Assembly (NCBI GenBank): GCA_037130135.1
Contig: JBAXTO010000003.1
Location: 36,090 to 100,089, forward strand
Direction: 5' to 3'
Length of the DNA stretch: 64,000 nucleotides
Source: Bacteroidota bacterium
GTDB taxonomy: Bacteria > Bacteroidota > Bacteroidia > Chitinophagales > CAMDFR01
The notes beneath the pieces were generated by a model. The model had not been told where the DNA came from and did not search any database. It was given only the letters and a program-made list of their open reading frames with translations. Both the position numbers and the translations under genes were made by a program. Positions 33,649 to 52,342 of this stretch are shown in pieces (the first letter of the stretch is position 1; every line of letters starts with the position of its first letter).

Positions 33649-34134
33649 GTGCTTACAATGAAAGGATTATTTTATTTACTATTGATTTATGGAGGAGTAG
33701 GTTGTAAAAGCTTTGGTACAGGCATAAACACGAATATGGCTGGCAATCCTAGCGATACAACAAAAACTCAAAATTGGAAAGAGTTAAGTCCCGAGCAATA
33801 TAAAGTTTGTCATGATAAGGCTACAGAAGCTCCCTTTAGTGGCAAATATGATAATCATTACGAAAAAGGAATTTATTATTGTGCCGTATGCAAAACGCCT
33901 TTATTTAGTTCAGAAACCAAATTTAAAAGCGGCACTGGTTGGCCTAGTTTTTATAATGAAATTGATACGAATGTGTCAACACATACCGATAGTTCGTATA
34001 ATATGATACGCGATGAGATTGTATGTAATAAATGTGGATCACATTTGGGTCATGTGTTTAATGATGGACCAGCTCCTACAGGTATGCGCTATTGTGTAAA
34101 TTCACTCTCTTTAGATTTTAAGCCGAGCAAATAA
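33649..34134 (+). CDS. msrB: Peptide-methionine (R)-S-oxide reductase MsrB with an N-terminal export signal
   Basis: YYCAVCKTPLF...GTGWPSF...CNKCGSHLGHVFNDGP...RYCVNS. Confidence 0.9.
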   Translation: MLTMKGLFYLLLIYGGVGCKSFGTGINTNMAGNPSDTTKTQNWKELSPEQYKVCHDKATEAPFSGKYDNHYEKGIYYCAVCKTPLFSSETKFKSGTGWPSFYNEIDTNVSTHTDSSYNMIRDEIVCNKCGSHLGHVFNDGPAPTGMRYCVNSLSLDFKPSK

Positions 34135-34205
34135 TAATCTAATGAATTGATAGATAAAGAATTCATCTATACACTCCTTAATTTTAAGCCATTAAAATAA
34201 AAAAA

Positions 34206-34242
34206 GCCTTGTATGAAATTCATACAAGGCTTATGTTTTTTT
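34206..34242 (+). terminator. Intrinsic terminator after msrB (the upstream A-run also makes it usable for tRNA-Leu on the minus strand)
   Basis: Stem GCCTTGTATGA / TCATACAAGGC followed by TTATGTTTTTTT. Confidence 0.8.
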
Positions 34243-34246
34243 GATG

Positions 34247-34326
34247 TGCCCCAAGTGGGAATCGAACCCACACACTTTCGTACACGATTTTGAGTCGTGC
34301 GCGTCTACCAATTCCGCCATCAGGGC
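34247..34326 (-). tRNA. tRNA-Leu (anticodon CAA)
   Basis: The reverse complement reads GCCCTGATGGCGGAATTGGTAGACGCGCACGACTCAAAATCGTGTACGAAAGTGTGTGGGTTCGATTCCCACTTGGGGCA. It has a long variable arm and the anticodon loop CTCAAAA. Confidence 0.9.
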
Positions 34327-34357
34327 ATTTAATAAGAACGTTAATTATTAAGTCCGA

Positions 34358-34365
34358 CAAAGATA
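34358..34365 (-). promoter_or_regulatory. -7 promoter box (TATCTTTG) for tRNA-Leu
   Basis: Matches TAnnTTTG on the minus strand, 31 nt upstream of the tRNA 5' end. Confidence 0.5.
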
Positions 34366-34400
34366 AGAAATAATCAGACTAGAAAAAAAATGTTCTTTTA

Positions 34401-34634
34401 TTATAATGATTTTAAAAATTCTTTACCAACTCCACTTTTTAAATATTTCTCTCTATTTCTTGCTTCAATTCGAGTATCAAATTTTTCGAAATGAACTAGA
34501 ATAAATGGTGCATAAAACTTAGTTGATGTGTTTTGTTTATTATTATGTTGCTTTACCCTACGATCAATATCGTTTGTCATTCCAACATAAATGTAATTAA
34601 ATTGTACACTTTTAATTGCATATACAAAATACAT
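34401..34634 (-). CDS. Small stand-alone GIY-YIG nuclease domain protein (UPF0213/COG2827-like)
   Basis: 77 aa. MYFVYAIKS...NYIYVGMTNDIDRRVKQHN carries the GIY...YIG...R...H/N signature, and a conserved E lies in IEARNREKYLK. Confidence 0.8.
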   Translation of the reverse strand: MYFVYAIKSVQFNYIYVGMTNDIDRRVKQHNNKQNTSTKFYAPFILVHFEKFDTRIEARNREKYLKSGVGKEFLKSL

Positions 34635-34668
34635 AAGTAAAAATAATTATCGAGAGTTAAAGTGCCCG

Positions 34669-34688
34669 CCTGCCTGCCGTCAGGCAGG
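34669..34688. repeat. GC-rich palindromic hairpin module (CCTGCCTG-CCGT-CAGGCAGG)
   Basis: Perfect 8-bp stem. It is related to the CCTGTC-GGCA-GACAGG module at 47970 and the partial copy at 52205, and it abuts tRNA fragment 1. Confidence 0.8.
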
Positions 34689-34711
34689 TCTACCAGTTCC
34701 GCCATCAGGGC
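34688..34711 (-). pseudogene. Truncated tRNA-Leu 5' fragment 1 (24 nt)
   Basis: The reverse complement GCCCTGATGGCGGAACTGGTAGAC matches positions 1-24 of the tRNA-Leu at 34247..34326 with one T-to-C difference, then diverges into the hairpin module. Confidence 0.8.
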
Positions 34712-34770
34712 ATAAAATTTATTTAAATATGTCTGATCTCTAGCGTTCGTAATTGCAAAAAACTATTGCT

Positions 34771-34791
34771 TACCAGTTCCGCCATCAGGGC
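34771..34791 (-). pseudogene. Truncated tRNA-Leu 5' fragment 2 (21 nt)
   Basis: The reverse complement GCCCTGATGGCGGAACTGGTA carries the same T-to-C variant as fragment 1 and has its own TATCTTTG box upstream. Confidence 0.8.
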
Positions 34792-34826
34792 ATAAATAAA
34801 ATGAACGTTTCCCTAAATTAGGATTG

Positions 34827-34834
34827 CAAAGATA
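34827..34834 (-). promoter_or_regulatory. -7 promoter box (TATCTTTG) upstream of tRNA fragment 2
   Basis: TTATCTTTG is identical to the box of the intact tRNA-Leu. It lies 35 nt upstream of the fragment 5' end. Confidence 0.45.
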
Positions 34835-34897
34835 ATTCTTTTCCTTGAATTAGTCAATGTATATATGTAAGTTTTTAGAGTCAATGCCCTCTACTTA

Positions 34898-36139
34898 CTA
34901 TGCTAAACCCTGTTCTAAATCGCTGATAATATCACCTATATACTCCAATCCTACCGACAAGCGAATCAAGCCATCGCCAATTCCAAATTGCTCGCGTTGT
35001 GCTTTTGGTACATTGAAATGCGTCATACTCGCTGGATGCTGAATCAGCGTATCTGCCGTGCCTAAAGAGGCTGTCAAAGTACATAATTGCACGCGATTCA
35101 TCAATTTTATACCTGCTTCTAATTCTCCTTTTAATTCAAATGAAATCACTCCTCCAAACTCGCGCATTTGTTTTAACGCAATCGCATGTTGTGGATGTGT
35201 TTCAAAGCCTAAATAATTTACTTTACTCACGGCTGCATGTGACTCTAAATACATCGCCACCAATCGCGCATTTTCCACATGTCGGTCCATACGCAAACTC
35301 AAGGTCTTTAATCCCTGATTCAATAACCACGCATCAAAGGGCGCTAACATCGCACCTTGCAATTTTCGTTGCTTCCACACTTGTTGTTTCATAAAATCTA
35401 TATCTCTTCCCACTAAAAATCCTCCTAAGGCAGTTCCATGTCCATTCAAAAACTTGGTAGTAGAATGCACAATTAAATCTACTCCCTGTGCAAATGGTTG
35501 TTGTAAATAGGGCGTTGCAAAGGTATTATCTACAGCCATCAACGCATTGTGTTGATGTGCAATAGCAGCTATCGCTTCTAAATCATAGGCATTAATAGTA
35601 GGATTAGAAGGCGTTTCGGCATAAATCAATTTCAATGTTTTAGTGTTAGATGCTAATTCACGCAATGCCTCTAAGTTATCTAAATCGGTATAAACTATTT
35701 GCACTCCTCGCTCTTGAATAATGGTATTTAATAATTCTATGGTGGTGCCATAAATATTTCCTTGTGCTATAATGGTATCGCCTGTTTTCAAGACACTATT
35801 AAATAGTGCCGCAATAGCAGCCATCCCCGTACTAAATAAATAACCTTTTGCTTCTATATTTTCAATACCATAACATTCTAATTGAGTGAGTTTATTTTCA
35901 ACTAATTCTACATTTGGATGATTCCATCTGCCATAAATAAAAGCTTCTTCATTTCCTCGAAATACATCCATTGCTTTTTCGGCACTTTCATAAATAAAAG
36001 TAGAACTGGCAAATATAGGAGTAGTGTGCGATGTAGGAGCATATACACTATCGTCTTTGATACAAATGGTATCGAATCCTTTTTTAAATTTATCATTCAT
36101 ATAGAAAATACTAATTTTGTTTATTATACATTCAATCAA
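34898..36139 (-). CDS. Cys/Met-metabolism PLP-dependent enzyme (trans-sulfuration family: cystathionine gamma-synthase / gamma-lyase / O-acetylhomoserine sulfhydrylase-like)
   Basis: PLP-lysine motif HSTTKFLNGHG, PASMTH near the C-terminus and YGRWNHPN. The true start is probably the internal ATG at 36100 (MNDKFKKGFDT...). Confidence 0.8.
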   Translation of the reverse strand: MIECIINKISIFYMNDKFKKGFDTICIKDDSVYAPTSHTTPIFASSTFIYESAEKAMDVFRGNEEAFIYGRWNHPNVELVENKLTQLECYGIENIEAKGYLFSTGMAAIAALFNSVLKTGDTIIAQGNIYGTTIELLNTIIQERGVQIVYTDLDNLEALRELASNTKTLKLIYAETPSNPTINAYDLEAIAAIAHQHNALMAVDNTFATPYLQQPFAQGVDLIVHSTTKFLNGHGTALGGFLVGRDIDFMKQQVWKQRKLQGAMLAPFDAWLLNQGLKTLSLRMDRHVENARLVAMYLESHAAVSKVNYLGFETHPQHAIALKQMREFGGVISFELKGELEAGIKLMNRVQLCTLTASLGTADTLIQHPASMTHFNVPKAQREQFGIGDGLIRLSVGLEYIGDIISDLEQGLA

Positions 36140-47924: not shown

Positions 47925-47933
47925 GTACTTATT

Positions 47934-48041
47934 AAAGTTCAAAGTTTAAAGTTTAAAGTTTTGAGCCTGCCTGTCGGCAGACAGGTTTAAAGTACAGAGT
48001 ATTCTTAATTCTTAATTCTTTCACGCCTTGGCGTGACGTAA
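47934..48041. repeat. Mosaic intergenic repeat: AGTTTAA array, TTTTGAG, hairpin CCTGTC-GGCA-GACAGG, ATTCTTA array, hairpin TCACGCC-TT-GGCGTGA
   Basis: AAAGTTCAAAGTTTAAAGTTTAAAGTTTTGAGCCTGCCTGTCGGCAGACAGGTTTAAAGTACAGAGTATTCTTAATTCTTAATTCTTTCACGCCTTGGCGTGACGTAATT. The same modules occur in the same order as the 52165-52342 copy. Confidence 0.9.
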
Positions 48042-52164: not shown

Positions 52165-52342
52165 GTTTAAAGTACAAAGTTTAAAGTTTAAAGTTTTGAG
52201 TTTTGAGCCTGCCTGTCGGCAGATATGTTCTTAGTTTAATTCATAATTTTTATCCCGAAGTACCGAACGTTCGGTAAGAGACGTAATTCGTTCACGCCTT
52301 GGCGTGACGTAATTCGTAATTTGTAATTCGTAATTCGTAATT
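52165..52342. repeat. Mosaic repeat cluster inserted inside the ars operon
   Basis: GTTTAAAGT units, TTTTGAG x2, GCCTGCCTGTCGGCAGA, CCCGAAG-TACCGAACGTTCGGTA-AGAGAC, TCACGCCTTGGCGTGA (52292-52307), then the AATTCGT array. It fills the DUF6428-arsC spacer. Confidence 0.9.

Follow-up and report, generated by a model that had tools for sequence, protein, structure and literature searches.

SegB of phages T4 and T6 is a free-standing GIY-YIG homing endonuclease encoded within a tRNA gene cluster (PMC2330249; PMC13096335). It recognises the conserved T-psi-C stem-loop motif of tRNA genes (PMC2330249), and units of tRNA plus segB undergo nuclease-dependent tandem amplification by short-homology recombination (PMC13096335). 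Here, we describe a bacterial locus in which a gene for a 77-amino-acid (aa) GIY-YIG nuclease stands beside the working tRNA-Leu(CAA) gene, accompanied by a 20-bp palindrome and two truncated copies of the 5' end of that tRNA, which we call stubs. The locus lies in a 64,000-nucleotide (nt) stretch of Bacteroidota DNA (the window; C23:36090-100089) from a genome of 3.09 Mb, 32% G+C and 31 contigs (G000), whose pyridoxal phosphate enzyme beside the locus has its nearest named relatives in Chitinophagales metagenome-assembled genomes, at ~60% identity. As with SegB, the GIY-YIG gene is found among tRNA genes without an intron and its presence or absence varies between related genomes, and the amplification of segB units parallels the tandem and nested stubs seen here, for which it provides an experimental precedent. 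Unlike SegB, which is a phage protein with a C-terminal DNA-binding part, the protein studied here is a 77-aa catalytic domain encoded on a bacterial chromosome, and its activity is predicted only. SegB also has no counterpart to the conserved 20-bp palindrome within a partial tRNA copy, and it is at the present locus that the tRNA is split and rebuilt.

In core size and catalytic residues, the protein matches UPF0213 (YhbQ-type, 1YWL, 1ZG2) and the URI-type nuclease Slx1. Slx1 is a repair enzyme for branched DNA that depends on its RING domain and on Slx4, while a full-text literature search returned no functional paper on UPF0213/YhbQ, and we know of no tRNA or palindrome context for UPF0213 or Slx1 proteins. 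Integrase islands and prophages insert in a tRNA gene, restore it from element sequence and leave a direct tRNA repeat. Those elements span kilobases, carry tyrosine integrases and duplicate the 3' part of the tRNA, whereas the insert here measures 386-465 nt, has no integrase and duplicates the 5' part. Short GC-rich palindromes that occur many times per genome, precisely inside repeats or hairpins, are known as the SDR elements of Nostocaceae and from REP/RAYT systems; in the latter, a single-copy gene for an HUH tyrosine transposase, RAYT, is flanked by its cognate palindromes, while for SDRs we know of no enzyme. Unlike RAYT, the enzyme here is a GIY-YIG nuclease and not an HUH (Y1) transposase, and neither SDR nor REP is tied to tRNA fragments. 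Group I introns with homing endonuclease genes, sometimes of the GIY-YIG kind, reside in bacterial tRNA-Leu genes and leave the tRNA functional. Unlike in such introns, tRNA function is kept here by duplication and not by splicing, and an Rfam E-value scan of 34100-34950 returned the tRNA family RF00005 as the sole family above threshold, with no ribozyme core. In the full-text literature, whose coverage is incomplete, we did not find bacterial tRNA-resident cassettes of a mini GIY-YIG gene plus palindrome described. The cassette therefore apparently represents an undescribed tRNA-resident type combining a GIY-YIG gene with a palindrome, free-standing GIY-YIG genes at tRNA genes being already known, and there is a real chance that the pairing of palindrome and nuclease is categorically new.

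We consider it probable that positions 34327-34791 hold one copy of a tRNA-resident mini-cassette, which combines the palindrome with the 77-aa GIY-YIG gene and, within this sub-lineage, also with a leader that carries its own tRNA promoter. The sequences with which we compared it are mostly metagenome-assembled genomes (MAGs) or metagenome contigs, and are referred to below by G or L numbers. The locus and its flanks are laid out as follows.

33649-34134, plus strand: msrB (SelR) gene, the right-hand host flank (Pfam PF01641, E=4e-52).
34199-34245, no strand assigned: bidirectional intrinsic terminator, stem at 34205-34231 with T/A runs on either side (inverted repeat I1 and direct reading).
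34246-34326, minus strand: working tRNA-Leu(CAA) (ARAGORN; Rfam RF00005, 56.9 bits).
34327-34400, minus strand: leader that the cassette supplies to the working tRNA; its -7 box, TTATCTTTG (34358-34366), is of the Bacteroidota type.
34401-34634, minus strand: 77-aa GIY-YIG nuclease gene, catalytic domain alone (Pfam PF01541).
34635-34661, minus strand: A/T-rich 5' untranslated region (UTR) of the nuclease gene, cassette-specific (homologous in L116, L118 and L119).
34662-34668, minus strand: relic of tRNA nt 24-30, CGGGCAC (exact CGCGCAC in L116 and L119).
34669-34688, no strand assigned: 20-bp palindrome CCTGCCTGACGGCAGGCAGG with an 8-bp GC stem (one mismatch against the family consensus CCTGCCTGCCGGCAGGCAGG).
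34689-34711, minus strand: stub 1, tRNA-Leu nt 1-23 with C16 (repeat search and direct reading).
34712-34770, minus strand: 59-nt spacer, a decayed leader ahead of stub 1 that holds TTTGCAAT (read by eye).
34771-34791, minus strand: stub 2, which is nt 1-21 of tRNA-Leu and formed the 5' end of the ancestral gene (joined directly to the native leader).
34792-34897, minus strand: native tRNA-Leu leader and promoter region, -7 box TTATCTTTG at 34827-34835 (homologous in G002 and G004).
34898-36139, minus strand: gene for a pyridoxal phosphate (PLP) enzyme of Cys/Met metabolism, the left-hand host flank (PF01053, E=1e-121).

A repeat search found the 5' end of tRNA-Leu(CAA) in three co-oriented copies, namely the working gene and two stubs that share its strand and lie less than 500 nt away. 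Both truncated copies announced by an earlier, sequence-only reading of this DNA are thus present, although stub 1 is shorter than was thought, ending at nt 23, as the 24th base is shared with the palindrome. That reading also placed the hairpin as a module after stub 1, when it is in fact a 20-bp insertion inside the stub: the palindrome interrupts it between tRNA nt 23 and 24, and nt 24-30 follow as CGGGCAC with one mismatch. The duplicated tRNA part is accordingly nt 1-21 in one stub and nt 1-30 in the other, which is the 5' end of the gene and not its 3' part. As had been claimed, an identical -7 box precedes stub 2 (35 nt upstream) and the working tRNA (31 nt upstream), and TTTGCAAT lies upstream of stub 1. 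When all 30 tRNAs were compared with the 3.09-Mb genome by blastn-short, stub 1 was the strongest non-tRNA match (E=1.7e-4), and stub 2 (E=0.011) was comparable to marginal matches elsewhere in the genome (E 0.013-0.045); beyond a few such marginal matches of 17-20 nt, this search returned no other tRNA stubs. RNA folding showed the stub-hairpin-UTR region to be no more structured than shuffles (z=-0.65), the 8-bp stem excepted.

Both stubs carry GGAACTGG where the working gene has GGAATTGG. The sequence-only reading was right about this difference but had its polarity reversed. Position 34311 of the window (tRNA nt 16) is T in the working tRNA, which is otherwise identical to the tRNA of congeners, and C in the working tRNA of all four congeners, in that of three metagenomic relatives and in both stubs. 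Since congeners and metagenomic relatives have C, this base is ancestral and survives in the stubs, and T is the derived state found in the working gene. We considered the variant as proof of imported 5' tRNA sequence and rejected it, the T being private to this genome. As an observation in its own right, T16 is a private substitution in the sole copy of the essential tRNA-Leu(CAA) gene.

The cassette is absent from all four congeners (G001-G004), each of which has a single tRNA-Leu(CAA) and neither a stub nor a close nuclease gene. The junctions of filled and empty alleles were read by eye and with BLAST. In G002 (GCA_947464015.1, 9932-nt contig C88), which belongs to the same genus, msrB, tRNA-Leu(CAA) and the PLP gene are adjacent without the cassette; the native leader joins the intact tRNA directly, and the window allele is 465 nt longer. 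Since the G002 leader runs into an intact tRNA, stub 2 is the ancestral 5' end with its native promoter. The cassette is located within the tRNA-Leu(CAA) transcription unit. An identical empty allele was found in three more assemblies from other samples, with a 1321-nt flank identical to that of G002, and L124, from a lineage 95% identical, is empty too; the search for empty sites in related genomes that the earlier reading had suggested was thus successful. The gene msrB is syntenic in G002/L121, L119 and L120 and provides a right-hand flank common to the empty alleles, in which the bidirectional terminator that closes the tRNA transcription unit is also kept. The cassette-borne leader is conserved in L116, L118 and L119 and missing from the empty alleles (G002/L120-L124). 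The right junction of the cassette is hidden within the invariant tRNA, and the leader that precedes the working tRNA has no counterpart in the empty allele.

The nearest homologues of the nuclease (92, 91 and 87% identical) are all located at the same tRNA-Leu, where the filled alleles take the following forms.

L119 (+386 nt): one stub, palindrome, CGCGCAC, open reading frame (ORF), new leader and tRNA.
L116 (+447 nt): two stubs, separated by a spacer of 40 nt.
L118: palindrome, ORF, leader and tRNA opposite to the msrB orientation, with a 7-nt tandem array in place of the stub.

The 3' 24 nt of the 40-nt spacer in L116 match the 59-nt spacer of the window at 19 of 24 positions (read by eye). 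Filled and empty alleles have closely similar surroundings, with 98.94% identity between the flanks of filled L116 and empty G002 and 96.98% between those of filled L119 and empty L124. This allelic series of empty, one-stub and two-stub forms is new from the window, as are a cassette younger than its flanks and a sub-lineage cassette with its own tRNA promoter, and its occurrence among close relatives makes the steps of gain, loss and duplication reconstructable. In L118:2420-2500 (Logan SRR20005816), where the flanks are 77% identical, a (TAGTTTT)n array abuts the palindrome where the stub would be, a layout that suggests an inversion or rearrangement with its breakpoint at the palindrome. 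Separately, the independent metagenome contigs L116, L118, L122, L123 and L124 end in or just past the 5' part of this tRNA-Leu; such ends are expected from an assembler if filled and empty alleles, or stub repeats, coexist, and hint at such coexistence. The congener G004, which lacks the cassette, has two tandem repeats of ~100 nt about 60-300 nt upstream of its tRNA-Leu(CAA) (G004:C9, L034). Each holds the hairpin CGCTCGGCTCTGCCGAGTG, and (AAATGTT)-like arrays are present too, so that a different module occupies the same site.

The alleles bear directly on the two origins put forward in the sequence-only reading. In the first, an unrelated GIY-YIG gene would have inserted by chance into a tandem array of tRNA-Leu genes, of which the locus preserves the remnants, and three co-oriented 5' ends, each with an A/T-rich leader, are what such an array would leave. 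However, congeners and empty alleles have one tRNA-Leu(CAA) only, the stubs end at nt 21-30, as they do in unrelated genomes, and the same layout recurs at no fewer than 70 loci with this nuclease clade, so we regard a disrupted array as highly improbable. The second origin, repeated insertion of an element that regenerates the 5' part of the tRNA, fares better: the inserted DNA leaves the old 5' end in place and brings a new leader and 5' part, although duplication is also possible as the source of the repeated stubs. A direct tRNA repeat flanking an insert, in a class of genes that are classic integration sites, could also be what an integrase-mediated island left behind after taking the tRNA gene for its attachment site. 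Yet the ORF list and a Pfam scan of the neighbours hold msrB, the GIY-YIG gene, the PLP enzyme and DinB only, and neither the 465-nt insert nor its neighbourhood contains a tyrosine or serine integrase, just as the earlier reading had stated. The repeat is moreover the 5' end and not the 3' end, and the insert encodes the nuclease alone, which leaves an integrase scar with next to no credence.

The cassette has diverged less than the DNA around it. Between L116 and L119, the cassette differs at 5 of 422 positions and the flank at 22 of 364 (98.8% vs 94.0% identity, Fisher p=2.4e-4). With the PLP enzyme gene as the yardstick of divergence, synonymous differences between the same two alleles, on small counts throughout, amount to 1/~50 in the GIY-YIG gene vs 13/55 in the PLP gene (p=0.001), and synonymous divergence (dS) between G000 and L116 is 0.35 in the GIY-YIG gene vs 0.66 in the PLP gene (p=0.008). 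Since the cassette is less diverged than its flanks, it coalesces more recently than its hosts. Judged by these comparisons, the cassette is one that moved or was converted between lineages after their split, and its mobility is well supported.

To place the locus in a wider family, we scanned one genome per species and obtained the 79 closest homologous loci, with proteins 57-73% identical. A co-oriented tRNA lies within 600 nt in 74 of these 79 loci vs ~2% expected by chance, and it is a tRNA-Leu in 71 (five anticodons) and a tRNA-Arg in 3. In the search among relatives, a small GIY-YIG gene, a partial copy of the same tRNA and the intact tRNA were found together at 11 of 20 loci (10 in other genomes plus the window's own). 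We also mapped the Leu label onto the protein tree, which includes distant relatives beside Met, Glu, Pro and Ser tRNAs and, with its 77 columns, is weakly resolved; the label is clustered, requiring 6 changes vs 22.4 in shuffles, and none of 500 shuffles came as low. The partial tRNA copies keep the anticodon of the local tRNA and range in length from ~26 to 71 nt, so that the window, with its short stubs, stands at the eroded end of this range. Two to four tandem nuclease copies, each with its own palindrome-bearing tRNA fragment, are present in 11 of the 79 loci (L038, L041, L044, L051, L061, L069, L085, L087, L103, L112 and L113), as expected from unequal crossing-over between tRNA-derived direct repeats. 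Within the genome under study itself, where the sequence-only reading had hoped to find more small GIY-YIG genes near tRNAs or stubs, the gene is single-copy.

A gene that serves its host would be a domesticated tRNA-operon nuclease, for instance in repair or processing, with the stubs as by-products of local duplication. The ORF is under strong purifying selection (ratio of nonsynonymous to synonymous divergence, dN/dS, 0.06-0.12), the gene is co-oriented and probably co-transcribed with tRNA genes, and the two-stub state persists in both G000 and L116, all of which would fit such a role. On the other hand, the gene is missing from all four congeners and is present or absent among lineages that are 97-99% identical, and the cassette is younger than its flanks. 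Proteins 60-70% identical are spread over Bacteroidota, Patescibacteria lineages, Nitrospirota and Ignavibacteriota, and the tandem copies described above also speak against a host function, which we consider improbable.

We propose that the cassette spreads between orthologous tRNA genes via homologous recombination, in which the stub and the intact tRNA serve as homology arms. The recipient's own promoter and 5' part would be left behind as a stub, and the recipient would gain the palindrome, the ORF, the donor leader and a rebuilt tRNA; with tRNA homology arms on both sides, the host would automatically be left with a working tRNA. The direct repeat formed by the stub and the tRNA 5' end would permit precise loss, which yields an empty allele, as well as tandem duplication. 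Either of two events may have given the window its two stubs: a second insertion, or an unequal crossover between stub and tRNA that duplicated the cassette in tandem, after which the first copy decayed. We further propose that transcription of the nuclease gene starts at the native tRNA promoter and runs through the stub and the palindrome. The gap between ORF and tRNA measures ~10 nt in most relatives, too little for a tRNA promoter, so the two must there share a promoter upstream of the stub. The nuclease of the window is probably transcribed from the native tRNA promoter as well, while the working tRNA would here use the cassette-borne promoter.

The claim that a 77-aa GIY-YIG ORF lies beside the tRNA held up well, with a PF01541 match of 61 bits against a cut-off of 22.6 (E=1.3e-16) that places the GIY-YIG domain at residues 1-67; in a further contrast to group I introns with homing endonuclease genes, the score for TIGR01453 is 19.7 bits against a cut-off of 56. 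Across 101 homologues, conservation reaches at least 97% for residues Y5, Y16, G18, R26, H30 and E62, and Y5, G18, H30 and E62 are invariant in 49 homologues. The AlphaFold2 (AF2) model, with a predicted local distance difference test (pLDDT) score of 95.9, has the topology b-b-a-b-a-a, a three-stranded sheet with flanking helices. The Foldseek matches are UPF0213 and Slx1 (template-modelling (TM) score 0.68-0.74, 25-28% identity), with I-TevI and UvrC N-terminal domains weaker, and the nearest solved relatives by sequence are the UPF0213 proteins 1YWL (E=1.8e-5) and 1ZG2 (E=7e-4). We think it possible, though on balance doubtful, that the nuclease itself starts the recombination and spread. 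If so, it may cut cassette-free tRNA-Leu DNA, as SegB does, or, as the Slx1-like fold suggests, its substrate may be the cognate palindrome extruded as a hairpin or cruciform. This fold, the lack of a binding domain and the perfection of the palindrome point to palindrome cutting rather than to the SegB-type option.

Several points weigh against our account of a mobile tRNA-resident cassette spread by recombination. Pfam, profile and model checks found no DNA-binding or further domain in the 77-aa protein, and to our knowledge every characterised homing GIY-YIG enzyme has a DNA-binding module. The supposed target is identical in sequence to the working tRNA of a filled allele, which leaves the avoidance of self-cutting unexplained. 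No co-conversion tract was seen in the left flank of L116 and no cluster of differences near the junction, and the last 228 nt of this flank are identical to those of empty G002. The counts behind the divergence comparisons are, as said, small, and strong purifying selection is also compatible with a host-useful gene. Finally, the direction of change at any single node is ambiguous: the two-stub form is common to G000 and L116, and for this reason the empty G002 allele may be a precise loss and not ancestral. At least one gain is required, since the cassette is missing from four species representatives and the leader is foreign.

The exact 20-bp perfect palindrome CCTGCCTGCCGGCAGGCAGG was found within 450 nt of the ORF in 41 of the 79 loci, and with up to 3 mismatches in 64. 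Taking MAG bins as given, the palindrome loci are assigned to nine named phyla, several of which are Patescibacteria lineages, a phylum count to be read with care, since one member, L060, is probably a mis-binned Patescibacteria contig. L060 (binned as Gammaproteobacteria) and L050 (Candidatus Paceibacter) are alike in stub, palindrome, nuclease, tRNA-Leu(CAA) and two tRNA-Met; their sequences are nearly the same, and their proteins are sisters on the tree. At these loci, the palindrome always sits within a partial copy of the adjacent tRNA with no tRNA base lost or gained. It is flanked by tRNA sequence on both sides (n/n+1) and never lies at the ORF junction, with insertion positions at nt 14/15 and 15/16 (D-loop), 23/24 (window), 39/40 (anticodon loop edge) and 68-71 (T-loop). 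Distant nuclease clades have other hairpins (TCCGCC..GGCGGA at tRNA-Met; CCCGA..TCGGG at tRNA-Pro and others), and the Arg-associated sister clade has the same palindrome as the Leu clade. Since the hairpin type differs by nuclease clade and the Arg sister shares that of the Leu clade, the palindrome follows the protein and not the tRNA.

These features raise the alternative that the 20-bp palindrome is itself the mobile unit and the GIY-YIG protein its cognate structure-specific nuclease, in the manner of RAYT and REP. The palindrome would insert at loop-coding, tRNA-like positions and survive in dispensable copies, where the nuclease gene resides. This view overlaps with the mini-cassette that we prefer and is not strictly exclusive of it. 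It would account for a palindrome that stays the same to the letter across phyla, against a protein identity of only 57-73%, for its embedding in tRNA sequence on both sides and for the tracking of protein clades, and it agrees with a fold nearest that of the branched-DNA nuclease Slx1. The genome also contains ~10-13 more palindrome copies, dispersed within 7-nt tandem arrays, and among 41 related genomes the palindrome is enriched where a close GIY-YIG gene is held (6 of 10 vs 4 of 31 without one, p=0.006). The dispersed copies, however, are a slightly different, asymmetric variant, CCTGCCTGACGGCAGTCAGG, the copies in G002 and G004 persist without a close nuclease gene, which keeps the enrichment from being decisive, and we know of no GIY-YIG enzyme that inserts DNA. 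Taken together, we regard a palindrome-centred element as unlikely.

The dispersed CCTGCCTGNCGGCAGNCAGG copies lie in (AAAGTTC)n-type arrays, for example at window positions 47925-47990 and 52165-52330, between AAAG and TTC. This array junction resembles the T-loop insertion sites GTTCGA/TTCC and GTTCAAG/TCC in partial tRNA copies.

A bolder version of our proposal, which we think unlikely to hold, is that the palindrome forms a cognate pair with the Slx1-like nuclease of 77 aa and that the two represent a new kind of mobile element, in which the nuclease cuts the palindrome when it is extruded as a hairpin or cruciform, and does not read a linear sequence. Such a break would cause the cassette to be copied into orthologous tRNA genes and also palindromes to scatter into loop-coding DNA and 7-nt arrays, with no transposase, integrase or classical sequence-reading homing enzyme involved.

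If the mini-cassette reading is true, the element would be among the smallest self-contained selfish DNA units in bacteria, with ~390-465 nt, one 77-aa protein and one palindrome. It would reside without harm in essential tRNA genes across distant phyla, including the ultra-small Patescibacteria, and would account for thousands of "GIY-YIG nuclease family protein" annotations beside tRNA genes and for many pseudo-tRNA fragments. It would also give researchers a nuclease of minimal size whose 20-bp cognate sequence is defined, and would bear on the role of tRNA genes as conserved landing pads for interspecies gene flow.

Two minor observations concern related modules. The intergenic mosaics that contain the dispersed palindromes also hold the GC hairpin modules TACCGAACGTTCGGTA and TCACGCCTTGGCGTGA and (TAATTCG)n arrays. 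In a tRNA-Arg(TCT) cassette of another family (L002, G019:C9:66220-66441), the stop codon of the nuclease ORF is the D-loop TAG (GGATAG), and the ORF and the intact tRNA-Arg(TCT) overlap.

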